From Candidatus Undinarchaeota archaeon (GTDB lineage: Archaea > SpSt-1190 > JASMDC01), in the NCBI GenBank assembly GCA_964519305.1, contig CAZFHY010000002.1, forward strand, positions 32,001-96,000: DNA of 64,000 nt. The letters run 5' to 3'. The position numbers and the translations under genes were made by a program. Under the pieces are notes generated by a model. The model worked only from the letters and a program-made list of their open reading frames with translations, had not been told where the DNA came from and searched no databases. Below, in pieces: positions 22,043-50,947 of this stretch (position 1 is the first letter of the stretch; each line of letters starts with the position of its first letter).

Positions 22043-22660
22043 ATGGAGGTCCCCGATGTTGCCGTTGAGGAGTACCGTTACATGCTCGACCGGGGCTACA
22101 ATCCCGTTTCAGCCTTACGGCTCGTCGGTGAGCGGCACCTGCTCCCGGCAGAGGCCTGCAACGTTCTCCGCCGCCGTGTGTTCCCTCAAGGATGGGTGGC
22201 GTCGGTCAAGGACAAGCTGCTCCTTCCGAACGACATCGAGGGTAAACAGGTCGCTGTGGACCTCTACAACGTGCTCATTACATGCGAGGCCCGGTCCGCT
22301 GGTGATGCGTTCCTGAGCGATGACGGATTGTGGCGGGACGCTCGTGGCGTGTACGGCAAGTACCGCATAAGCGACGACACGCTATCCGCCCTCACAAGCA
22401 TCGTGCGGTTCATGGTCGAGAACCGCGTGGCTCAGGTGCGGTTCCTACTGGACGCTCAAGTGAGCAAGAGCGGCGACCTTGCTTCCCGGATAAGGCAAGT
22501 ACTGGCCGGTGAAAGGCTCGCGGGCGAGGTCAAGGTATTAAAAGATGTGGATGCGAGCATGCGCCGCCTGGGACGCACTGATTGGGTGGTCGCTACCTCG
22601 GACACTGGTATTATCCAGTACGTGACCGCCGTTGTCGATGTCCCCGGAGGGATTCAGTAG
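22043..22660 (+). CDS. DUF434 domain protein (PIN-like)
   Basis: Y.L.RGY, D.YNVLIT.E, DG..RD, SKSG.LA, ATSD. Confidence 0.85.
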   Translation: MEVPDVAVEEYRYMLDRGYNPVSALRLVGERHLLPAEACNVLRRRVFPQGWVASVKDKLLLPNDIEGKQVAVDLYNVLITCEARSAGDAFLSDDGLWRDARGVYGKYRISDDTLSALTSIVRFMVENRVAQVRFLLDAQVSKSGDLASRIRQVLAGERLAGEVKVLKDVDASMRRLGRTDWVVATSDTGIIQYVTAVVDVPGGIQ

Positions 22661-23787
22661 TGAGGAACCTGTTCGACGGACCTGAGCGTGGTGTGTTCCG
22701 CGGAGACGACGGAGACCTTGTGCTCCTCCACGACTACTTGCCGGACGAGCTCCCACATAGGGAGAACGAGATGCACGTCGTGGCGGACTGTGTCAGCCCG
22801 CTCATCAGCGGAGGGCGTCCAGTCCATGTATTCCTTCATGGTGCCCCGGGGATCGGTAAGACAGCAGTGACAAAGACAGTGCTCACCCATATGGGCGACC
22901 AGACCACTTGTGTCAAAGCGCTCTATCTCAACTGCTGGAGCAAGAACACCAGGCATGGAGTGCTCGTTGAACTCCTCACAGCTCTAGGGGAGATAGTCCC
23001 CCGTCAGGGTCTTTCAACGGATGAGGTGTACGACCGGCTCCTTTACCGCCTGGACCGGAAGGCCGATGGTTACGTCATTGCTCTCGACGAGGTGGACCGG
23101 TTGGCAGGCAAGGAGGGTGACGTGCTCTACGATCTCCTCCGCTCCGAGGTGAACCTCGGTCTCATCCTCATCTCGAACGATCCCTACGCCTTCCGCAACT
23201 TCGATGCCCGGGTCCGGTCATCGCTCAGTTATGAAGAGGTGTCTTTCGCTGCCTACGGGTACGATGAACTGAAGGACATCCTGGGCGAACGCGCGCGCAT
23301 GGCCTTCCTCCCGGGTGCCTGCGATCCTGCTATCGTGGGCGTGGTCGCCCGGTTCACCGCTGATAGCGGGGGCGATGTTCGGCTTGGGTTGGACTGTCTG
23401 CTGAAGGCCGGGCGCGAGGCAGAGCGTGCGGGCTCCGCCCGTGTCGGCGCAGATCACGTGAAAGCCGTTCTGGGCAGAGTGCGGAGTGCTCGTCTCAAGC
23501 TGGACCTACAAGGGATCACTGACGAGGAACGTGCCATCCTGCGAACAGTGCTCACCCTCACCGAGCATGACACGTCACCCGTCACCACGGGAGCTGTGTT
23601 CGACGCCTATAAGGAGAACGGAGGTGTCGTCGCCGAGCGCACGTTCCGCAAGTACCTGGGGAACCTGGAGTCGCTGCGCATCCTATCCTCGCGTCTGAGC
23701 GGCAAAGGCCAGCGGGGCAACACCCGGCTCATCACCGTGCGCGCACCCAGTACCGAGCTCACAGCGCTCCTAGGCGAGATGTTCTGA
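22660..23787 (+). CDS. cdc6: Orc1/Cdc6 family replication initiation protein
   Basis: Y.P..LPHRE, GAPGIGKT, YLNC, LDEVD, GDVR, C-terminal wHTH with G.RG.TR. Confidence 0.93.
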   Translation: MRNLFDGPERGVFRGDDGDLVLLHDYLPDELPHRENEMHVVADCVSPLISGGRPVHVFLHGAPGIGKTAVTKTVLTHMGDQTTCVKALYLNCWSKNTRHGVLVELLTALGEIVPRQGLSTDEVYDRLLYRLDRKADGYVIALDEVDRLAGKEGDVLYDLLRSEVNLGLILISNDPYAFRNFDARVRSSLSYEEVSFAAYGYDELKDILGERARMAFLPGACDPAIVGVVARFTADSGGDVRLGLDCLLKAGREAERAGSARVGADHVKAVLGRVRSARLKLDLQGITDEERAILRTVLTLTEHDTSPVTTGAVFDAYKENGGVVAERTFRKYLGNLESLRILSSRLSGKGQRGNTRLITVRAPSTELTALLGEMF

Positions 23788-24717: not shown

Positions 24718-26097
24718 CTAGAGGTCGACCTTGTCGCCCATCGAGGGGATGGCACAAGTAAGGTCACACCCCTCGAGCCGCTCCTTGAACGCTACTGCCG
24801 ACCGCTCCTCGCCGTGGACGATGAACACTTTCCGTGGGGGTTTTGAGAAGCTGGACACCCAGTGTTCCAGATCCTCGTAGTCGGCGTGGGCGGAAAAACC
24901 CGCGATCTGCTCGATCTTGGCGTTGACGTCGAACTCGTACCCCATCATACGGATCGTCTCGGCACCGTTCAGGAGGTGATGGCCCAGAGTACCTTCGGCC
25001 TGGAACCCAACGAAGATCACAGCGTTGCGGGGATTTCCGATGCCGTGGCGGATGTGGTGACGGATCCGGCCGGCGGTGCACATCCCGCTCCCGGCGATGA
25101 TCACGCACGGTTCGTCGTACTCGTTCAGGCTCACAGAGTCGGCGGTGGCTTGGGTGAAAACGAGCCCCTTGAACTTGAAGGGCGTTTCGAACGCGTCCAT
25201 GTTCTTCGGGTCGAACCAGTCCGTGTGCTTCGAGAAGATCTTAGTGGCCTTGATCGCTAGAGGGCTGTCCAGGAATACGAGCATTTCGGGCATCTTAGCA
25301 TCGCGCAAGAGCTCGTTCATCCCGTACAGGATCTCCTGGGTGCGTTCCACTGCGAACGATGGGATCATCACCCGCCCTCCCCTATCGTATGTCTCACGGA
25401 ATATGCGGGCCATCGTACGGCGCCGGTCTTCGACGCCCTCGTGTAGCCGGTCGCCGTACGTCGACTCGATGATGAGGTAGTCGGTATCCTTGATGATGGT
25501 CGGATCGTTCACAAGCGGTGCGTTCCGCTGACCTAGGTCGCCTGAGAACACGAGCTTGACCACGCGTTCCCCCTCGGTAGCCCACAGCTCGATGATGGCC
25601 GAGCCGAGTATATGGCCGGCGTTCCTGAAGCGGGCCCGGACGTTCCGGGTCACTTGGATATCCTCATCGTACTCCACGGGCTTGAAGTGCTTCACTGCTG
25701 CAGTCGCGTCTTCCGATGAATAAAGGGGACGGCGGGGGGGCAGCTTCTGGCGCTGGCGGCGCCGGTTCTCGTGCTCGGTGTCCCGAGCGATGACATGGGC
25801 CGAGTCCGCGAACATGATCTGGCACAGGTCATGTGTGGGCTCTGTGCTCCAGATGGTGCCCTTGAAACCCTCCTTCACGAGCTTGGGGATGAGCCCTGAG
25901 TGGTCGATGTGGGCGTGGGTGAGGATGAGGGCGGTGATGCGGGAGGGATCGAAACCGAATCCCTCGTAGTTCTTGCGCGTGACCTCCTTCCGGCCCTGGA
26001 ACATCCCGCAATCGATGAGGATCTTATCCTTGCCGACCTCAAGCAGGTAGCATGAACCAGTGACGATTTTCGCAGCGCCGTGGAAGCTCAGTCGCAT
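24718..26097 (-). CDS. MBL-fold beta-CASP ribonuclease
   Basis: THAHIDHSG, AGHILGS, FSGD, ESTYG, FAVERTQE, FSAHAD, VHGE. Confidence 0.93.
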   Translation of the reverse strand: MRLSFHGAAKIVTGSCYLLEVGKDKILIDCGMFQGRKEVTRKNYEGFGFDPSRITALILTHAHIDHSGLIPKLVKEGFKGTIWSTEPTHDLCQIMFADSAHVIARDTEHENRRRQRQKLPPRRPLYSSEDATAAVKHFKPVEYDEDIQVTRNVRARFRNAGHILGSAIIELWATEGERVVKLVFSGDLGQRNAPLVNDPTIIKDTDYLIIESTYGDRLHEGVEDRRRTMARIFRETYDRGGRVMIPSFAVERTQEILYGMNELLRDAKMPEMLVFLDSPLAIKATKIFSKHTDWFDPKNMDAFETPFKFKGLVFTQATADSVSLNEYDEPCVIIAGSGMCTAGRIRHHIRHGIGNPRNAVIFVGFQAEGTLGHHLLNGAETIRMMGYEFDVNAKIEQIAGFSAHADYEDLEHWVSSFSKPPRKVFIVHGEERSAVAFKERLEGCDLTCAIPSMGDKVDL

Positions 26098-26124
26098 AGC
26101 GTTCCGGGGGAAGTGCATCCTTTA

Positions 26125-31719: not shown

Positions 31720-32049
31720 ATGCCGTGGGAACACTGGTCGCCTACAAAGAAAGGCTTAGCTACAGGAGTCCTGTTCGGGATTGCGTTCTCACTGGTCAGC
31801 TTGCTGGCTACGTGTCATCCAAATGCGTTGGGCGGGCGTTCCGACGAGTGCACGGGCACGCTCATGCTGCTATTCGGTACCGCTGAATTCCTGTTCTTTG
31901 TCCCCATCGGAGCGCTCTCATTCATCTTGGGGGTGGAACTGTCGTTCCCCGTCCAGCTCATCGCAGGTCCAGTACTCACTTCAGGGATATTTGGAGCTGC
32001 AGCGGGCGACCTATACAAGTATCTGGGCCCTACTGAAATAGAACGCTAG
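31720..32049 (+). CDS. Small membrane protein
   Basis: Three hydrophobic segments. Confidence 0.55.
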   Translation: MPWEHWSPTKKGLATGVLFGIAFSLVSLLATCHPNALGGRSDECTGTLMLLFGTAEFLFFVPIGALSFILGVELSFPVQLIAGPVLTSGIFGAAAGDLYKYLGPTEIER

Positions 32050-42104: not shown

Positions 42105-42683
42105 ATGGCAGCAACGAACGAGACTGATGATTACAATGAGCTTATGAACGCTTGGCTCTACAGATTGGGCCGGTACACGCTCATATTCCTGATCCTTGTG
42201 GTCCCTTACCTGTCGCTCCTGCGATACAACGGGTTCTTCGAGGACTACAACATCAATAATGCTCGCTACATGATCAGCTCGCTCATTCAGAGCGAAGCTG
42301 CAATGATCTCCATCCTCGTGGCAAGCAGCCTGATCGTCCTGAGGCTCTCCCCCCGGTCCATAGTGGCAAGCGAAGTAAGGAAGTTCCGTGAATCCCCGGA
42401 CCTGTGGATACTCATGGGCATCTACCTAGTAGCAATGGGCTACGGTCTTGTGACGCTGAACACACTTGGTATGGGATCCACGGAGGAGAACATAATCTCG
42501 AACTTCCAGATCGCATTCGTGCTCTATCTGGGCATCTTCGCCTTTGCATCGATCATCCCCTACGTCTGGAACCTTCTCAGCCTGATGGAGGGGGCCGCTT
42601 CGACCACTAAGGCCCCTGTCGCTGAAGAAGATGAAGGGGATGAGAAGAAGGAGAAGAAGGGAAAGGTCAAGAAGAAGAAATAA
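42105..42683 (+). CDS. Membrane protein (DUF2254-like)
   Basis: NARYM.S..IQS.AA motif, 4 TM, charged tail. Confidence 0.65.
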   Translation: MAATNETDDYNELMNAWLYRLGRYTLIFLILVVPYLSLLRYNGFFEDYNINNARYMISSLIQSEAAMISILVASSLIVLRLSPRSIVASEVRKFRESPDLWILMGIYLVAMGYGLVTLNTLGMGSTEENIISNFQIAFVLYLGIFAFASIIPYVWNLLSLMEGAASTTKAPVAEEDEGDEKKEKKGKVKKKK

Positions 42684-42753
42684 GGTCTGATCCCGCACCC
42701 CAAAAGGTTTTTATACAACCTGGGTCGCCCAGAATAACAGGACAGGGTATAAG

Positions 42754-44229
42754 ATGTTGTGCAATGAGGCCGAGGAGCCATTTGCAGCACCGGTCGCAAA
42801 GGCCTATGATGCGTTCGTCGAGGCCTTCGACACCCGTGACGATTACGAGACCATCAACGGTATGCGGGAGTCGCTCGCCAAGTCGTACGATCCAGTGCGC
42901 AATGGTAACATCGTTCTTGCACTGAACAAGTACGACATATTCACCGATAAGGACCGGGGGACGAGCCACGGCTCCCCGTGGGACTACGATCGTCATATCC
43001 CTCTCATCTTGTACGGGAAGGGGGTGCAGAAGGGTGTGGAGATCGATGACGATGCCATCCAGCAGGACATAGTCCCCACCCTCGCCTACCGCATCGGGAC
43101 CGATGCCCCGGCCACCGCCGAAGGGCGGGTCCTGCATGAGGCCTTCGACACCCGTGATGGCGAGCGTCCGAAGGTGGCCGTTATGATGGTTCTCGACCAG
43201 GTGGCGTTCCGCTACCTGGAAGAATACAAATGGGCGCTTAGCAACGTGCGGAAGATCGCTAGGGACGGGGTATCGTATAATAACATGCGCGTGGCCCACC
43301 TCCCCACCATCACAACCGTTGGCCACAGTGCTCTGGGAACGGGCGCGTTCCCGGGGACCACCGGTATAGTCGGTCACAATATCTACGATCCCGACCTCGA
43401 CGCCATGGTGTACGCAATGGAGGGGGGAAGCCCTCAGTACCTGGAGGCCGAGACCCTCGCGGACGTGTACGATCAATCCGTGGGCAATCGCGCCCGCATC
43501 GTTAGCGTTGGTGGTGCTGACCGGACAGCGATCGGTATGGCGGGTCATGGTACCATGTCTGCGGGCGGGGACAGTGACGACGTGTTCTGGTTCGATCCGG
43601 ACACAGGTCGGTTCGAGACCAACGATGCCTTCTACTCAATGCCCGACTACCTGCGCGGTATGGACATCATGGACTATTCCACACCCACCTTCAAAGGTCA
43701 TACGGTGGACGATCCCGAGGTGGCCATGGCATCACCTGCCCTCCCCCTGATGATGGGGGACGCCCTAATAAATGTGCTCGAGAACGAGGACCTGGGCTCG
43801 TCGGACGTCACCGACCTAATGTTCGCTAACTTCAAGTCACCCGATTACGTAGGCCACGCCTACGGCCAGGGGCCGGAGCTCTTCCTTACACTGCTGGCAG
43901 TGGACCGCTCCATCGGACGGGTCAAGGAGAAACTGGATGAGCTCTATGGGGACGACTACATGCTCATTATCACCGCTGACCATGGTGCCGCCCCGAATCC
44001 AGAGCGCTCCGGTGGCCACCGCGTCAACCCCGACCAGTTCGTGGAACGAATCAACACCGAGTTCAACGGTGCTGTTCGGTTCAATGAACCTGCGGGAGGT
44101 CTCATGAACCTCTATGTGGACGAGGACGCCTTGGCCCTCCAGGGGAAGACCCTTGAGGATGTGAAGGATACCCTGGAGTCTTACGACGAGGTATTCCATG
44201 CCTTCACGAAGGACGAGATCCAATCCTGA
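42754..44229 (+). CDS. Alkaline phosphatase superfamily (PafA/NPP-like) protein, circularly permuted
   Basis: Motifs LDQ, T.T..GH, DYVGH, ADHG and SHGSP.DYD..IPL are all present, but the last motif lies N-terminal to the others. Confidence 0.88.
   Translation: MLCNEAEEPFAAPVAKAYDAFVEAFDTRDDYETINGMRESLAKSYDPVRNGNIVLALNKYDIFTDKDRGTSHGSPWDYDRHIPLILYGKGVQKGVEIDDDAIQQDIVPTLAYRIGTDAPATAEGRVLHEAFDTRDGERPKVAVMMVLDQVAFRYLEEYKWALSNVRKIARDGVSYNNMRVAHLPTITTVGHSALGTGAFPGTTGIVGHNIYDPDLDAMVYAMEGGSPQYLEAETLADVYDQSVGNRARIVSVGGADRTAIGMAGHGTMSAGGDSDDVFWFDPDTGRFETNDAFYSMPDYLRGMDIMDYSTPTFKGHTVDDPEVAMASPALPLMMGDALINVLENEDLGSSDVTDLMFANFKSPDYVGHAYGQGPELFLTLLAVDRSIGRVKEKLDELYGDDYMLIITADHGAAPNPERSGGHRVNPDQFVERINTEFNGAVRFNEPAGGLMNLYVDEDALALQGKTLEDVKDTLESYDEVFHAFTKDEIQS
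42820..43157 (+). repeat. 20-bp direct repeat GAGGCCTTCGACACCCGTGA (42820-42839 and 43138-43157)
   Basis: Exact match; both copies encode EAFDTRD. Confidence 0.85.
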
Positions 44230-44233
44230 GCAG

Positions 44234-44926
44234 CTACCTGTTCATAGCCTGGTTGTATGATCCGAAGTTGACACGGTCGTAGTAGTAGCAGCGTGAGGCC
44301 TCTGGGCCATAGAGCGGTTGTGTCTGGTACTGCTGCTGTTGCTGTCCCTGGCCATACATCCCCTGGGTCTGGCCATAACCAGCATATGCGGGAGGCTGGG
44401 CAGCTACGGCCGCATGTGCTCGTGAGGCCCGTAGGGTGAGGACCACGACCGCACCAAGAAAGATGACCGCCAGCCCTCCGGCGACGATCATCGCCTTCGA
44501 GCTGCCCTCATCGTCACCCTCGCCTGAGGTACCGGACGCATCCTGGCCGCAGTCCTTGACCGTGAGCGTGCTTGATTCACTGCTCTCCCGTCCCTCGACG
44601 CCCATGGAACCCGTGAGAGTGAACTCGTACGAGCCCGCCGGGGTTCCGTCAGCGATGCGGAACGAGACCATTTGCTTGGCCTGTTTGAACGCTCCCAGGT
44701 TGATGGAGAATGTCTCGTCCGTGGCGTATTTACCGGCATCGCCCAAGACCTTCACGGTGAACATGACGTTGTCATCGATGAGGTTGCGGAATGTCGCTTC
44801 CGCTTCCACGATGTCCATTGGGCACCCGGGCGGTGGCTCGGTGATGGTCAGTTCGAGCACATCAACTGCGACCGCGCTCATGACCAAGATGAAGATGAGG
44901 GCAACAGCGCAACGCATAGGATTCAC
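44234..44926 (-). CDS. Secreted Ig-like protein with C-terminal TM and Gln/Tyr-rich tail
   Basis: Signal peptide, beta-rich domain, TM, QQQQQYQ tail. Confidence 0.7.
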   Translation of the reverse strand: MNPMRCAVALIFILVMSAVAVDVLELTITEPPPGCPMDIVEAEATFRNLIDDNVMFTVKVLGDAGKYATDETFSINLGAFKQAKQMVSFRIADGTPAGSYEFTLTGSMGVEGRESSESSTLTVKDCGQDASGTSGEGDDEGSSKAMIVAGGLAVIFLGAVVVLTLRASRAHAAVAAQPPAYAGYGQTQGMYGQGQQQQQYQTQPLYGPEASRCYYYDRVNFGSYNQAMNR

Positions 44927-45915
44927 TTTTCCGTGTTCAGGATGATGCGGTTCACCTTACCGATATGCTCTTTCTGGATAATGTTCCTAGCTTCGAGGGC
45001 AGTGATGGTACGTGATATCTTGGATTTCGAGTAGTCGAGTTCGCGGGTGAGGTCGGATTGCATCATGGTGCCGCCCGCTCGCACGACCGCTCGGACCACG
45101 TCACCTTCCTCCTCGCTGAGAGAGGGGAACAGTTCGAAGATATTGCCTTCCATTGTCTCGGTGCGTGGGGCCATGAAGAATCGCTTGACCACGTAACCTA
45201 TGGTAAAACCGAACATGAAGATGACCACCAGGGTCTGTATCGTATACCCGTTCTCCGTCACGGGCGGGCAATTACCTCTGATTACGGGTTTCTCGAAGGC
45301 CACCGAGAACTCGAGAGTGGTCCGCGGATCGAGGTTGCGGCGCGTCCAGGCCATGATGAGCGTACGTCCGTCGGTCTCTACCGACCCCTCAGGGTACATG
45401 AGCGAGGTCCCCTGGCCGGCCCGGTCGAGTGAGGCGGGGAGTACATAGCCCGGGGGCAGTCGTACACGGAGGCGAAAGTCCTCGATAGGGCGATGGGGTC
45501 TGAGGCGCATGGAGAATGTGTAGGTGGAGTTAACGCGCTTCACTGGTCCGCCCTTGTTAGCCTCCATGTCGAACTCAAGGTTCAGGGTGCGTCGCTCGGT
45601 CGGCTTGATGGGTGTCGTGAGGTTGATGGCCGCTACCCAGACCCCGGCCTCACGCACGAGCTTCCAATCTAGTGGTTGCATCGCGTCACGTACCTCGAAG
45701 TTACGGGCTTCGAATCCGAGGGGGAACGGTACCATGTGGATTGGATCCGTGCCCCAGTTCCATATAGTGGCGGTTACGACCTCGTGCACGTTCCCATTGG
45801 GCTCCACATACAGTTCCATGGCGTAGGTCTTGAACTTGAAGTCGTCGGCCACTCCCAGTCCGATGAGCGTGATGAGGGCGCAAAACAGGAGAATGGCCGT
45901 CCTACCTCTTCCCAT
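44923..45915 (-). CDS. Membrane-anchored protein with C-terminal winged helix (COG2512-like)
   Basis: Signal peptide, beta-sandwich, TM, 'QS.L......SKSK.SR....LE.R.II.K...G..N'. Confidence 0.8.
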   Translation of the reverse strand: MGRGRTAILLFCALITLIGLGVADDFKFKTYAMELYVEPNGNVHEVVTATIWNWGTDPIHMVPFPLGFEARNFEVRDAMQPLDWKLVREAGVWVAAINLTTPIKPTERRTLNLEFDMEANKGGPVKRVNSTYTFSMRLRPHRPIEDFRLRVRLPPGYVLPASLDRAGQGTSLMYPEGSVETDGRTLIMAWTRRNLDPRTTLEFSVAFEKPVIRGNCPPVTENGYTIQTLVVIFMFGFTIGYVVKRFFMAPRTETMEGNIFELFPSLSEEEGDVVRAVVRAGGTMMQSDLTRELDYSKSKISRTITALEARNIIQKEHIGKVNRIILNTEK

Positions 45916-45954
45916 TGCTCCCTATACGCACTGTATCCTATTTAAAAGCTGGCG

Positions 45955-47802
45955 TCAGCAGCGGTCGCAGCGCTCCACATTGTCCACGAGTACTGTGGCA
46001 CCATCCTTCATTACGGGCGTCACCGGTTTCATCACGATCTGGTGTTCGTTCTCGCCAGGTCGGACGAGCACGCGTTCGGTTGATGGGACAACGCGGTACC
46101 CTACGTTCCCGACATCATCCATTGATGGGACCGCGGCGAGTATGTACCATCCGGAGCGGATATGGGGGAAAGAGTATTCGCCCTTCTCGTCGACGACGGC
46201 CGTGTAGCTCAGACCCGGTTCATCAAGCGATGCTATGTGAATGGATATGTACCGCTCGGGCGAACCTCTAACGAACGATAGACGGGCGTTCCCCCTGTCG
46301 AGGATCATGTTCTTGCACCCGGTCGCTGAGCGGGTATTGCACAAAACAGCCGAACGCTTGAGCACCTCGCCTTTGAGGTTAGCCGCCGCAGTGAGGCGCA
46401 CTGTGACATTATTGACAACGTGCTCGCGCAGCTCGATAAGACGGGTGGATAGGAAATACGTATCCGTGTCCGTAGGTGTGGCCGAGAGACGGACATTGCC
46501 GCAGGGGACGTTCTCCACGACCGTCTCGTGGAACGAGCTAGGGAACGAGTGGATGATGGACATGTCGCAAACGTCCATGTACGCTCCGTCAATGATAGGG
46601 GTATCATCGGCCGCACCCAGTACCGTGAGTTTCATCGTGCAGGCGCCCAGACATTCCTCGCTAATGTCAGCTGCAGTCGAGCGGTATATCTGGTTCTCCC
46701 TTACCTCCCCCATGTACAAGACGTTGAATTTGAGGCCCGCCGCCGCAGACACTTCCTGGCCCAGGAGGACCTTGGATGTCTTGCGAAGGTCGACCACCGA
46801 TACTAGGGTGGGCATGGTGAAGTTGTACCACGCCTGCCAGCTACGTATGCAAGGATAGGTACGTCGAGCGACCCATTTATGGATGAGGTCGCGGTTACCA
46901 AAATAATCAACGAAGGTAAGATCTATCTGTGGGCGGACGGGTGACATGCGCCAAAGCACCTCCGCCTCCCGCCCGGTCAGGGTCTCATTGGTGCGGAGAC
47001 GGACGAGGGTCTGGGATATTGCCAGCTTGAGGTCCTCCTCCATAGGGGCGATGAGGTTGCGCTTATGCACGAACTCCTCTCTACAGGTGATCTCAGGGAG
47101 ACCTTCTGGTATCGGGAACCGGGGATCCTGACGCATGAAGTAGATGAAGTGTCGCTCGACGCTCTCGTTCCGGGCCATGAGACCTATCGCCTGCTCTGTG
47201 ATATCACGAAGGAACTTCAGGCGCAGCTCGAGCACCACCGACGGTGTATAGGTCTGTGTCTGGGGTCCAGTGCGGCCATCATGGGTGAGCACGACCGTGG
47301 CCGAGGCACCGACGTATGTGTCGCCGAGCTCGGCCTGTACCCTGACGTCCTTGGTGCGGAGGTGGACCGCTGCATACTCAGGCCGCTTCTCCAGCTCTTC
47401 GAGCCGCTCACGGAGCCGGCTGTCGATCTCATCCTCGAGCATAGAGCGCATAAGTTCGGTCGAAGGGATCTGTACTACACGTCCTCCGTGGAACCAGTAC
47501 GGGATCTGCTCGAACGAGACGGGCGGCACCAGCTCTCGGCGGTATCCTCCATGGGATGCGACTTCCTCGGTCGCCTCGTAAGTTGCCTCCTTCAGGGCAC
47601 TGGCCACGATCTCGTTGAGCTTTACCGCGGTGAACCGCTCCTCTTCTCCCTCCCGATTGTCCGAACGGCGCTTGTCATCAGCGCTCTGTCGTGCGTACGA
47701 ACCCGCGATGATGACCACGATTATGAGGGAGAACGCCATGAGCGCCAGCATGACGAACGCACCGCTCCCGCGATGCTGCTGTACGAGCGTCCTACTCCTC
47801 AA
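45955..47802 (-). CDS. Large exported protein with pilin-like N-terminus
   Basis: RG| followed by a hydrophobic helix, 'GGY' and 'PYW' motifs, C-terminal 'G.Y.F..I..G.Y' prealbumin-like domain. Confidence 0.6.
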   Translation of the reverse strand: MRSRTLVQQHRGSGAFVMLALMAFSLIIVVIIAGSYARQSADDKRRSDNREGEEERFTAVKLNEIVASALKEATYEATEEVASHGGYRRELVPPVSFEQIPYWFHGGRVVQIPSTELMRSMLEDEIDSRLRERLEELEKRPEYAAVHLRTKDVRVQAELGDTYVGASATVVLTHDGRTGPQTQTYTPSVVLELRLKFLRDITEQAIGLMARNESVERHFIYFMRQDPRFPIPEGLPEITCREEFVHKRNLIAPMEEDLKLAISQTLVRLRTNETLTGREAEVLWRMSPVRPQIDLTFVDYFGNRDLIHKWVARRTYPCIRSWQAWYNFTMPTLVSVVDLRKTSKVLLGQEVSAAAGLKFNVLYMGEVRENQIYRSTAADISEECLGACTMKLTVLGAADDTPIIDGAYMDVCDMSIIHSFPSSFHETVVENVPCGNVRLSATPTDTDTYFLSTRLIELREHVVNNVTVRLTAAANLKGEVLKRSAVLCNTRSATGCKNMILDRGNARLSFVRGSPERYISIHIASLDEPGLSYTAVVDEKGEYSFPHIRSGWYILAAVPSMDDVGNVGYRVVPSTERVLVRPGENEHQIVMKPVTPVMKDGATVLVDNVERCDRC

Positions 47803-50800
47803 TGTTCATCACCACACTCTTGGACGAGAGCACTAGCGACCGACCTTCCACTGGTGCCTCGATGTACACAGCGACTGCGTAGGAACCGGGCGCGAGAGCG
47901 TTGTCGAGGGTACAGGTCAAATGTCGTACCTCATTGGGCGCGATAGAAGCCACGTCGTACCTCTGGACAAGGATAGGTCGTTCAGCGAATCCCTTGGCGA
48001 TCTTCAATACCAGCTGTGCTTGAGGGGGCCACATACTCTCACCCGTATTGCGCACCGAGACGCTCAGATGGTCAAGTGTCCTCTCTTCGATGATGATGTT
48101 CCCGTAGGAACCCTCGTCACTGGTGACCTCACATGTGTCAAAGAGGTACCCGCCGGGATTCTGACGCACGAACAGGTGGGTCTCCGCGCTCGAGAATTCC
48201 TTTCCGGTCACAGCTATGCGCACCTTTAGGAGCTTGGGGAGGAAGATGACGGGGCCACAGAACCGCACGCTGCGTACGAACACCTGGATGCCCTGAGGTG
48301 TGTTCACGAGGTTCATCTCATCGTACGGGATTGTGGTCGTATTGACGCCTTCACCGTAGTCGTTGGTGATCGTAATGTAGAGGTTACGGAAGTCCTCGTT
48401 GCTGAATCCGCGGAGGGCAAGAGTGAGAGTGAAGTCGAATCCTAGAACGCTCTCTGCCTGGAACACGTAGTCGGCGGGCTCCACGGAGACTATGTCGATG
48501 GTCGTAGGCGCCACCTCGTGCAGCTCTACGGGTGGTGCTGTGAGGTTGATGCCTTGACCGAGATGGGATACGTTCACCTCAAGGGCCGCGTAAGGACCCA
48601 TCTCCTCGGGATGTGGGGATCGGAAGATGACGAGCATGTCCCACAGGCCCCTGATGTCGTCGTACTCGGCGGAGTTGACAATCATCTCCTCTCCACCAAG
48701 ATATGCACGAAACGCGTCCTTCGGGAAGGATGTGACAAGGTTACCCCGGTCCGAGAGACGCAATAGGATATGCTTACGTATGCCGAAGTGGATGTCCGTG
48801 TGCTCGAATGTCGTGGGCGCGGCCACTACTCGTCCGTTCAGGTCCCCGGCGTGTCGGGGGTACCACACCTCGATGGTGCGCGCCATTGACCAGACCTCCC
48901 CGTGATAGAACACCTTGATGTAAACACGATAGAAACCGGGTTCGGGATTTGCTTGGATGGGGAACCTGAAGCGCCACCTCCCACTGCCCAAATACTCCGA
49001 AGGTCGTACTTTGGGGAGGCGCTCCCGTCCAACGGTGAACTGGGCATGGAGGTCCCGGGTGAGCTCGTCGGAGAGGTCGACCTGGCGATAGCCCAACTTC
49101 AAGACAAGGTCGAAGGTGACACCCTCAGCAAGGTCCTCCCGGCGTACAGTGAGCGGGGTCAGTCCCTCCACTTTAGCCGTCAGCGTCGGCTCTATACACC
49201 CGTTGAGTGTGCACAGCTGGCTAAAAGCGCAAGTATCCAATGTGTTGGACGTGTCGTCAAGACATGAACACGTCCTTTTTGCACACGTCTCTCCGTCGAA
49301 CGCACAAGCATATGATACAAGACCGGCGCGGATGGAGCATCCGCCCTCGGTAAGGTCGAAGCCCACGTCCCTACCACCCTGACAGCCGTCCTCGGTGCAG
49401 AGGGCCTCCATCTTGCACACGAACACCTCGCGTCGGTTGGCACACAAGCAGGAAGGGAGCTCATCGGGCCCCGGTCTGCACCGCATCCCCTCGTTCAGGC
49501 AGGGCATGGCGAGGTCCGGGCCCACAATGAACTGTCCATTTTGGCAGATACCGAAAAGGCGGTTATCGGGTTCGATGTCGTGGATGATGACCGATTGGCT
49601 ACGAGTCGCCACCGTGCGACCCCCTTGGACGACCCGGATACGGAGCGTGTACTCGCCCCTGCGGGCACCAGCAGGCACCTCGAGGAAGAAGCCGGCACAT
49701 TGCTGAGGCTCGTTGTGGGCCGCAACCATCGAGCCCACAGCGTCCAGTAGGGTGGCGTAGCACATAGCGTTCGACAGATGCGAGAGCGTGATGGAGATTG
49801 TCTCACCGGCCATGAACTCCCGCTTGGCGGTGAAGTTGCCCTCGAGCTCTCGTGTTTTGGAGGTGATCACCTGGAACACACGGGAGAGAGAGTTGCGCTC
49901 TGGGCCGCTCACTCCTTCGGCCTTGAAGACATAGGTCCCGTCATCGAGCTGAGTGGTGTCGACGGGCACCTCTGCATCGCACCCCACAGCGCTGTCGAAC
50001 ACGGCCTCCCCCCGGGCGTCTACCAGTCTCACTGTGCAGCTCGCATCCAGCTTGCGGCTCTGCAGCCGGGCCGTAGTGGTCTCGCCACGGTACACGATAC
50101 GTGAAGGTCTGCTCACCGTTGTCTGGAATGAGATGAACTGCTGGGGTGGAGTGGTTACTGCGAAGGTGAAGCTCTTGTGGGCGACATGAAGGGTTTCCTC
50201 CACGCTAACAGCGAATGTCTCAATCGTGTAATCAGAGGCGACCGGCCACGGTCCCACGTGAACATATGTGGGGGCACAGTTGGGCGATACCTGGGTGAAG
50301 TACACGGCCCGTCCACGTCGGACGTAAGTAAGGCACAGGGTCGGTTTGACCTCAGTGGCCTCGTCGATGTTGAACTCCAGACCTACCGCGGAACGTTGTG
50401 TGGCCGCTGGTGTCGAGAGCATAGGATTGAAGCTGATTCCTTGGATGTCAGCGAACACGCCAACGTTGAGGGTGACGCCCTGGCCTGATACACCGCTCTT
50501 TCTAAACCGCTGGGCAGGGGGGATGAGCACGTTCTCTTCCCAGGTGATCCCTATGTTCTCAAAGAGGTCGAGATAGAGTGGTGTGTACGATACATGGAAC
50601 GAGACCTCACCTGTCGGTGCAAGGTCCTTGAGCACGATGAAACGCGAGATGTCGTCGATGAACACGTGTACATAGAGCTTCTCGTGTTCGAAGGATACGA
50701 AGCAGAAGCTCAGCGCATAGTCCTTGAAAAGTGACCTGCAGACGTACTCTCGTAGTTTCTCCTCCTCTGTTGAGAACAGTGATGCGACCTCGTCCGGTTC

Positions 50801-50947
50801 GAGCGCCATGGTGAAGGAGATATCGGCCCGGCGCATCTCAAGAAGATTGGTCGTGCCCGATACGGTAGCAGATGTGGCCGCCCTGCTCGTAAGTAAGACT
50901 ATCAGTAGAATGAGCGGTAGCGCACGGCCGACCAAGCTCATGCTCAT
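47792..50947 (-). CDS. Large secreted multi-domain surface protein (Ig-like repeats, Cys-rich core, CARDB-like end)
   Basis: Signal peptide; G.Y.. beta-sandwich motifs; Cys-dense middle; 'V.V.N.G' C-terminal domain. Confidence 0.7.
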   Translation of the reverse strand: MSMSLVGRALPLILLIVLLTSRAATSATVSGTTNLLEMRRADISFTMALEPDEVASLFSTEEEKLREYVCRSLFKDYALSFCFVSFEHEKLYVHVFIDDISRFIVLKDLAPTGEVSFHVSYTPLYLDLFENIGITWEENVLIPPAQRFRKSGVSGQGVTLNVGVFADIQGISFNPMLSTPAATQRSAVGLEFNIDEATEVKPTLCLTYVRRGRAVYFTQVSPNCAPTYVHVGPWPVASDYTIETFAVSVEETLHVAHKSFTFAVTTPPQQFISFQTTVSRPSRIVYRGETTTARLQSRKLDASCTVRLVDARGEAVFDSAVGCDAEVPVDTTQLDDGTYVFKAEGVSGPERNSLSRVFQVITSKTRELEGNFTAKREFMAGETISITLSHLSNAMCYATLLDAVGSMVAAHNEPQQCAGFFLEVPAGARRGEYTLRIRVVQGGRTVATRSQSVIIHDIEPDNRLFGICQNGQFIVGPDLAMPCLNEGMRCRPGPDELPSCLCANRREVFVCKMEALCTEDGCQGGRDVGFDLTEGGCSIRAGLVSYACAFDGETCAKRTCSCLDDTSNTLDTCAFSQLCTLNGCIEPTLTAKVEGLTPLTVRREDLAEGVTFDLVLKLGYRQVDLSDELTRDLHAQFTVGRERLPKVRPSEYLGSGRWRFRFPIQANPEPGFYRVYIKVFYHGEVWSMARTIEVWYPRHAGDLNGRVVAAPTTFEHTDIHFGIRKHILLRLSDRGNLVTSFPKDAFRAYLGGEEMIVNSAEYDDIRGLWDMLVIFRSPHPEEMGPYAALEVNVSHLGQGINLTAPPVELHEVAPTTIDIVSVEPADYVFQAESVLGFDFTLTLALRGFSNEDFRNLYITITNDYGEGVNTTTIPYDEMNLVNTPQGIQVFVRSVRFCGPVIFLPKLLKVRIAVTGKEFSSAETHLFVRQNPGGYLFDTCEVTSDEGSYGNIIIEERTLDHLSVSVRNTGESMWPPQAQLVLKIAKGFAERPILVQRYDVASIAPNEVRHLTCTLDNALAPGSYAVAVYIEAPVEGRSLVLSSKSVVMNIEE

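Follow-up and report, generated by a model that had tools for sequence, protein, structure and literature searches.

A naturally circularly permuted PafA-type phosphatase gene on an archaeal contig and the mostly bacterial family around it

Can the chain of an alkaline phosphatase be reordered in nature, its last segment coming first, while the two-zinc catalytic centre is kept? This question is raised by a gene in a stretch of 64,000 nucleotides (hereafter the window; positions 32,001 to 96,000 of contig CAZFHY010000002.1, from the assembly of a Candidatus Undinarchaeota archaeon). The gene occupies 42754..44229 of the window on the forward (+) strand, the strand of all its features given below, as one open frame of 491 codons plus a stop, and it begins at the first start codon downstream of a stop. 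A first-pass annotation, made from the letters alone, had described the product as a naturally circularly permuted PafA-type alkaline phosphatase with all of its zinc ligands kept. This description is supported by the open reading frame (ORF), the matches to Pfam, NCBIfam and PDB entries and the structural model, by which the whole gene is recognised as that of a circularly permuted PafA/PhoK-type two-zinc phosphatase. The gene is very probably an intact, expressed-type one, encoding a permuted phosphoryl-transfer hydrolase with two zinc ions, from the PafA/PhoK branch of the alkaline phosphatase (AP) superfamily. This reading is carried by the swapped order of the chain, by catalytic residues that are conserved, by a model predicted as one compact fold and by trees in which the two orders separate once.

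Natural circular permutations are known in swaposin/saposin, transaldolases, glucanases and DNA methyltransferases, and the present case resembles them in that fold and active site are retained while the chain termini shift. Full-text searches outside subscription journals returned no paper describing circular permutation in the alkaline phosphatase superfamily; the matches concerned statistical "permutation" or were unrelated. The permuted family, the relocation of a lysine within it and a leaderless archaeal clade are the new elements.

Chain order, catalytic residues and predicted fold

When the protein was compared by phmmer with the chains of the PDB, the best match was PafA (5tj3, E 5e-37), which was found in three pieces and in swapped order. 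Residues 136-295 of the query corresponded to 15-183 of the 5tj3 chain (independent E value 1.2e-15) and residues 329-474 to 262-412 (5.4e-12), while residues 41-135, at the beginning of the query, corresponded to 444-537, towards the end of PafA (5.6e-4). The second-best matches, the PhoK/SPAP entries 3q3q and 5xwi (E 5e-28), displayed the identical three-piece swap, and the chains of nucleotide pyrophosphatases/phosphodiesterases (NPPs) matched much more weakly (E ~2e-7). Among the NCBIfam models, that of PafA (NF042991) was also the best, with 192.4 bits split into three stretches, and the PhoY model (NF051873) was likewise matched in three stretches, below its cut-off (133 bits against 1000). 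Pfam assigned the protein to PF01663 (Phosphodiest, type I phosphodiesterase / nucleotide pyrophosphatase) with 116 bits, the gathering cut-off being 23, and this match covered residues 143-487 only, at profile positions 2-296 of 342.

The reverse comparison gave the same picture. A profile of the N-terminal block, made from 84 permuted relatives, matched every one of the 56 canonical relatives, and its main match began, in the median, at 82% of the length (median 78.7 bits, E at most 3.2e-9 for a database size of 1.8e9); there was one weak secondary match earlier in a chain. With such E values in every one of the canonical relatives, the swap lies far beyond chance. The segments are thus significantly similar in swapped order, and two block matches in one chain occurred in none of 265 relatives. 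The claim of a swapped order with respect to PafA is therefore borne out by the split matches to 5tj3, 3q3q and 5xwi and by the block profile alike.

The query can be divided into an extension, a moved block and a core. Residues 1-36 (42754..42861) form a non-hydrophobic N-terminal extension without a signal peptide, as judged from the model (predicted local distance difference test, pLDDT, 42-65) and from hydropathy. The transposed block (residues 37-135, 42862..43158), delimited by phmmer and the block profile, corresponds to about 444-537 of PafA and bears the last zinc ligand. It is followed by the core (residues 136-491, 43159..44226), which Pfam, phmmer and the mapping of relatives place colinear with PafA 15-412 and which ends where the canonical chain enters the block. 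The old C-terminus is joined to the old N-terminus within residues 131-140 (FDTRDGERPK, 43144..43173), according to phmmer, the model and the relatives' mapping, and the pLDDT of this linker of about ten residues, 90, is the lowest within the model body. In canonical relatives the core begins at residue 18-53, directly behind the leader, and 1-39 residues lie between the block end and the C-terminus (at most 18 in all but one of the 25 relatives listed).

The new termini of the query, when mapped on canonical relatives, fall in the region behind the last core strands. In the canonical protein P0197, query residue 471 corresponds to position 418 and query residue 11 to position 421; in P0171, also canonical, residue 488 corresponds to 439 and residue 38 to 450. 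The query C-terminus and residues 11-38 thus map to adjoining canonical positions, in agreement with the suggestion that the chain stops where the block would normally follow.

The zinc ligands come from both segments, and the claim that all of them are retained held in the family alignments. For the core, 84 permuted and 56 canonical rows were placed in one joint alignment (140 rows). His72 (TSHGSP, 42967..42969), the ligand contributed by the moved block, is invariant in the 84-row alignment of the permuted family. Asp148 (VLDQ, 43195..43197) is present in 84/84 permuted and 54/56 canonical rows, the other two being gaps. Asp364 and His368 of the DYVGH motif (43843..43857) are invariant in all 140 rows, and of Asp409-His410 in the ADHG motif (43978..43983) the Asp occurs in 140 and the His in 139 rows. 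Thr187 (43312..43314), which phmmer and the joint alignment place at the PafA nucleophile T79, is a threonine in 83/84 permuted and in all 56 canonical rows. In the permuted-family alignment H72, D148, H191, D364, H368, D409 and H410 are all invariant. The query accordingly has the bimetallo core of the AP superfamily, with six ligands (Asp, Asp-x3-His, Asp-His, His) and a Thr nucleophile.

A structure prediction, which the earlier annotation had proposed as a check, was made with AlphaFold2, the 84-sequence family alignment serving as input. It yielded one compact model with a mean pLDDT of 95.0 and a predicted template modelling (pTM) score of 0.93; the moved block was at pLDDT 96-99, and poor scores were limited to residues 1-30. 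The PafA "monoesterase helix" sits in a long insert that is also present in the query, in whose model a helix is predicted at residues 256-263. In a Foldseek search of the PDB, the top ranks were occupied by 5tj3, 5too, 3q3q and 5xwk (probability 1.00, template modelling score TMq 0.56-0.60, 412-431 columns), so that PafA and PhoK are the nearest solved structures; in the sequential alignment TMq was 0.58 for 5tj3 and 0.60 for 3q3q (root-mean-square deviation 3.5). Phosphonoacetate hydrolase and most NPPs reached 0.31-0.37, and the ENPP1 entry 6wev 0.43. Neither phmmer nor Foldseek found a full-length colinear match to the query among solved PDB chains, and hence the permuted family is apparently without a PDB member. 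The ESM Atlas, consulted without a structure search, returned generic AP-family clusters only.

From these data a working scheme can be proposed. The segment of about 100 residues that ends canonical enzymes comes first (residues 37-135) and supplies His72 as a zinc ligand, the loop 131-140 links this block to the normal mature N-terminus, and the chain ends at the canonical entry to the block. Catalysis would probably proceed as in PafA: zinc-activated Thr187 would attack the phosphate ester, and the resulting phospho-threonine would be hydrolysed by water. Arg257 and a relocated Lys361, the latter in place of PafA Lys162, may hold the non-bridging phosphoryl oxygens.

PafA itself (Elizabethkingia, phosphate-irrepressible; 5TJ3, 5TOO, NF042991) has in common with the query the Thr nucleophile, the six zinc ligands, Arg164 and the insert with the monoesterase helix. 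The query differs from it in that the 444-537 block comes first, Lys162 is replaced by Ala and Asn100 by His (with an adjacent Asn), a Lys has been added three residues before the Asp of DYVGH, and the signal peptide is missing. PhoK/SPAP (Sphingomonas sp. BSAR-1; 3Q3Q, 5XWI, 5XWK) matches the query in the three swapped segments and with the highest TMq, 0.60, but is itself of canonical order, has the Lys (VAGKDR) and is secreted. The NPPs (Xac NPP 2GSN, ENPP1-7) share PF01663, the bimetallo core and the Thr nucleophile, whereas they are of canonical order and without the large monoesterase insert, at TMq 0.31-0.43 against the query.

Extent and origin of the permuted family

A word-indexed search returned 419 proteins at E≤1e-3. 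Of these, the best 120 each give a single colinear alignment to the query, mostly over ~92% of its length and at 28-45% identity. One of them, P0002, is 93% identical and also 491 amino acids (aa) long, and its cluster comprises eight member sequences on four contigs of up to 290,849 nucleotides (nt). In an exhaustive search of 1.84 billion cluster representatives, 5514 proteins were found at E≤1e-3, of which 356 reached E≤1e-30. When 265 related proteins were sorted by the order of the three query pieces, 185 proved permuted, 61 canonical and 19 partial. The search for other permuted homologues, suggested in the first-pass annotation, was therefore successful, and the gene is one of many, a member of a large and mostly bacterial family. 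A colinear full-length alignment to a known family had been named there as an observation that would tell against a permutation. More than 100 proteins do align colinearly over ~92% of the query, but they do so as members of the permuted family.

Relatives are also encoded in species-representative genomes, which were scanned with an alignment of the 5-member query clade: at least 555 of at least 599 candidate stretches carry one. The best 80 of these are colinear and come from bacterial metagenome-assembled genomes (24-40% identity) of Acidobacteriota, Vicinamibacterales, Gemmatimonadota, Verrucomicrobia, Planctomycetota and sphingomonads. No close relative of the query was present among the matches listed from these genomes. 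The names given to relatives were "alkaline phosphatase family protein" or [quoted passage not shown] only.

The trees were built on the contiguous core alone, which keeps the moved block from driving the result. They included 84 permuted rows, with 98 further permuted rows left out against redundancy, and 56 canonical rows, namely all those that had the three pieces and whose core spanned 280 residues or more. The FastTree core tree contained one change of order, the separating branch having a support of 100. An IQ-TREE analysis under a site-heterogeneous model, applied to a random subsample of 28 permuted and 24 canonical rows, likewise gave one change (Shimodaira-Hasegawa-like approximate likelihood ratio test 100). 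These results fit a permutation that occurred as a single old event.

In distant members of the superfamily the block stands behind the core. Query residues 56-127 match 261-334 of the 514 residues of the sulfatase chain 9bes_B (phmmer), and residues 74-142 match profile positions 319-392 of 486 in the NCBIfam arylsulfatase model. The canonical order is for this reason most likely the ancestral one. Fused intermediates, sought among proteins of 861-2455 aa, yielded two weak matches only, with 52% of the query covered, which is weak evidence either way.

Taken as a whole, the proteins probably represent, with the same good degree of confidence as the assignment of the gene itself, an old, widespread, mostly bacterial and apparently undescribed permuted family that diverged from the canonical enzymes in a single split. 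PafA is a leading model enzyme for the residue-by-residue mapping of catalysis, and the permuted family offers a natural experiment on how far such an architecture depends on the connectivity of the chain. PafA-type enzymes are also counted in environmental surveys of phosphorus cycling. Phosphatase surveys probably miss or mislabel the permuted family, because the Pfam model covers only part of the chain, the PafA model rejects it, and a "PafA-like" filter based on K162 excludes it.

Substrate class and cellular location

The entries 5too and 5tj3 differ at T79S, N100A, K162A and R164A, and these four aligned places anchor the residue mapping. In the phmmer alignment, T79 corresponds to T187 of the query, N100 to H208, K162 to A255 and R164 to R257. 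The joint alignment agrees on Ala255-Asp256-Arg257 (43516..43524) and on His208-Asn209 (43375..43380), where an Asn directly follows the His. According to a preprint on PafA, K162 and R164 touch that phosphoryl oxygen which diesters have esterified and monoesters have free, K162 also forms a hydrogen bond with the ligand D38, and in PafA without K162 and R164 mono- and diesterase activity are equal (Markin et al., 2020, bioRxiv 10.1101/2020.11.24.383182).

The loss of K162 is a trait of the permuted family, and a second lysine is found elsewhere. These two accessory columns tell the chain orders apart almost without exception. The K162 column holds K in 56/56 canonical but in 5/84 permuted rows, with A in 38 of the permuted rows, including the query. 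Lys361 (43834..43836) lies three residues before the zinc ligand D364 and, as judged from the joint alignment, is a candidate replacement; its column holds K in 83/84 permuted rows and in 0/56 canonical ones, of which 52 have S. Cross-tabulation of the permuted rows gave 79 with K361 only, four with both lysines and one with the K162-type lysine only, while all 56 canonical rows have K162 only; not one of the 140 rows is without either. From this covariation we hypothesise that Lys361 now performs the function of Lys162. A single compensatory case is P0147 (ISLGSTDYCGH), the only permuted row lacking Lys361, which has a Lys in the K162 column.

The Arg164 column has R in 40/84 permuted rows in total, among them the query with R257. 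Asn100 is N in 55/56 canonical and 57/84 permuted rows; H occurs in seven permuted rows, and in five of these, including the query, an Asn comes next. This position is still Asn in P0003, P0122 and P0004, the nearest relatives, and His is found in the query and P0002, so that His208 is a recent change in these two and not a family trait. The first-pass annotation had pointed to changes of both the Asn and the Lys. Both positions are indeed altered (H208, A255), but the loss of the Lys is family-wide and paired with K361, and it cannot be read as a simple loss of a monoesterase residue. Given a family-wide loss of K162 and a His confined to few members, the shifted specificity proposed for this enzyme can be called no more than possible. 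With Arg257 and Lys361 holding the phosphoryl oxygens, the enzyme would more likely be a monoesterase than a diesterase.

A permuted subgroup that includes P0086, P0089, P0114, P0116, P0117, P0160, P0174 and P0180 is without the equivalents of Asn100 and Arg164. Its proteins, often with an N-terminal membrane anchor and 540-635 aa in length, have a Trp behind the K162 region and keep K361 and all zinc ligands. This subgroup may be a functionally distinct branch.

The most serious alternative, though an unlikely one, is that the permuted enzyme is mainly a phosphodiesterase or nucleotide pyrophosphatase of the NPP kind, in which the missing Lys162 and a His in place of Asn100 would mark a changed substrate class. 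A255 in place of K162 and H208 in place of N100 are what such an enzyme might have, and the equalised mono- and diesterase activity of PafA after removal of K162 and R164 (Markin et al., 2020) points the same way, as do the 116-bit assignment to PF01663 and a cytoplasmic location, which suits nucleotide-derived substrates better than phosphate scavenging. Against this, R257 is kept, K361 is present in 83 of the 84 permuted rows and both lysines are missing together in none of the 140 rows; Asn209 adjoins H208; and the nucleophile is separated from DYVGH by the long insert of PafA/PhoK type. The query is moreover far closer to PafA and PhoK than to the NPPs, both in sequence (E 5e-37 and 5e-28 against 2e-7) and in structure (TMq 0.58-0.60 against at most 0.37 for most NPPs).

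As for location, a leader was recorded where the mean Kyte-Doolittle value over 11 residues ahead of the block was at least 1.6. The best such mean in the first 36 residues of the query is 0.74, and no hydrophobic N-terminal segment was seen, as the absence of a signal peptide claimed earlier had implied. A hydrophobic leader occurs in 161/185 permuted relatives. Of the other 24, 14 have their first residue in the block or at its edge, probably because the gene call was truncated, and P0174 has a twin-arginine-like leader. The query, P0002, P0003 and P0122 have 28-41 non-hydrophobic residues before the block, and all four group with P0004 in a clade whose support in the core trees is 99-100. 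The description of the enzyme as possibly cytoplasmic is upheld as far as sequence can go, by a leaderless clade set against the 161 relatives with a leader. Since this clade has no export signal, the enzyme most likely works in the cytoplasm, which poses the question of the role of a PafA-type enzyme inside a cell.

It is improbable that the protein is nevertheless exported, through an unrecognised start or route, and serves as an extracellular phosphate scavenger like PafA. This would agree with the leaders of most permuted relatives and with the small membrane-protein gene (42105-42683) that precedes on the same strand at a 70-nt gap. However, there is no in-frame start before 42754 up to the stop, the upstream gene is in a different frame, and the gap contains a TATA-like element; the N-terminus of P0002 is the same, and P0003 and P0122 are leaderless too.

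An artefact or a decayed gene, by misassembly or by private fusion of a 3' remnant to a 3'-truncated second copy into something non-functional, was rejected for practical purposes and has a negligible probability: tandem fusion is the classical route to permutation, and an exact 20-nt repeat around the block could in principle mislead an assembler, but the same order recurs in 185/265 relatives from many independent assemblies, a 93%-identical copy (P0002) stands on four contigs of up to 291 kb, the catalytic residues of both segments are invariant, the frame is uninterrupted for 491 codons, a single compact domain is modelled at pLDDT 95, and relatives show no second block copy, with two weak matches only to fused forms above 860 aa.

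Several points weigh against the interpretation of the gene as a member of an old permuted PafA/PhoK family with a two-zinc active site. Its score of 192 bits lies under the 650-bit equivalog cut-off of the PafA model, and the sequential Foldseek alignment reaches just TMq 0.56-0.60 on PafA/PhoK, although this is the value expected of a permutant because a sequential aligner cannot fit both segments at once. The trees are unrooted, so that calling the permuted order derived depends on outgroup gene order only. The absence of a signal peptide was judged by a simple hydrophobicity rule and not by a trained predictor. With His at Asn100 and Ala at Lys162, the query, which has T187 and R257, also fails the "PafA-like" definition by T79, K162 and R164 that Markin et al. 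(2020) used. No solved or assayed member was found in the permuted family, whose activity and specificity are thus predicted ones. Lastly, the gene surroundings give no functional hint. Phosphate-uptake/transport or pho genes are absent from the window, and neither pst/pho genes nor a recurrent partner was found among 123 neighbouring ORFs at 31 bacterial loci, which renders the context uninformative on the substrate.

A more far-reaching version of the permuted PafA/PhoK reading may be offered tentatively, at rather less than even confidence. The permuted proteins would constitute an ancient sister family of PafA/PhoK in which the catalytic Lys has moved to another strand, and the leaderless archaeal offshoot would be a cytoplasmic one whose Asn change suggests that its substrate is an intracellular phosphoester different from those of all characterised members.

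Promoter-like element, direct repeat and neighbouring genes

In the 70-nt gap behind the upstream gene, at 42708..42715 (+) and about 40 nt before the ATG, the sequence TTTTTATA resembles a TATA box. This element suggests that the gene may have its own archaeal-type promoter.

The sequence GAGGCCTTCGACACCCGTGA was found twice in the gene by a repeat search, as an exact direct repeat of 20 nt whose copies are 318 nt (106 codons) apart, in frame, and flank the moved block. The first copy (42820..42839) encodes residues 23-29 and the second (43138..43157) residues 129-135, both as EAFDTRD. Exact repeats longer than 16 nt appeared in 0/1000 codon shuffles of the gene, and the sequences flanking the two copies, compared in register, are no more alike than background. 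Near-copies of both repeat peptides occur in P0002, at 93% identity, and neither occurs in relatives of 45% identity. The repeat was considered as a scar of the permutation and ruled out, since an exact, lineage-specific repeat in a family of 25-45% identity is far too young for this. It may be a short gene-conversion patch.

The window is archaeal, and its genes include those for Orc1/Cdc6 (22582-23787) and for a helix-turn-helix (HTH) protein of DUF7343 (44923-45915). It further encodes urocanase, a GH1 glycosidase and subunits of the xanthine-dehydrogenase type. A beta-CASP nuclease (24718-26118, minus strand) has one relative of 95% identity, the next matches being at ~56% and none of them above ~58%. 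Further beta-CASP matches are labelled Woesearchaeota, Altiarchaeota, Micrarchaeota and "bacterium", and the window belongs to a poorly sampled archaeal lineage.

The gene immediately upstream of the phosphatase gene (42105-42683, +) encodes a multi-pass membrane protein of 192 aa with a poly-lysine tail and a weak match to DUF2254 (E 1.4e-4). Around the bacterial homologues, a TonB-type receptor or an outer-membrane barrel was seen at 3 of the 31 loci. At one Acidobacteriota locus (L036:4262-5155, +) a second AP-clan protein (Metalloenzyme superfamily, PF01676) is encoded immediately upstream of the permuted homologue.

Downstream of the phosphatase gene and convergent on it, four abutting or overlapping genes (44234-50947, minus strand) encode membrane or secreted proteins. 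These are a membrane protein rich in Ser, Gly and Gln, a membrane protein with a C-terminal HTH of the DUF7343/MarR-like type, and proteins of 615 and 1051 aa with no Pfam family except a weak match to a WxL-interacting domain. The four genes may form a cell-surface module that includes a membrane-bound regulator of its own.

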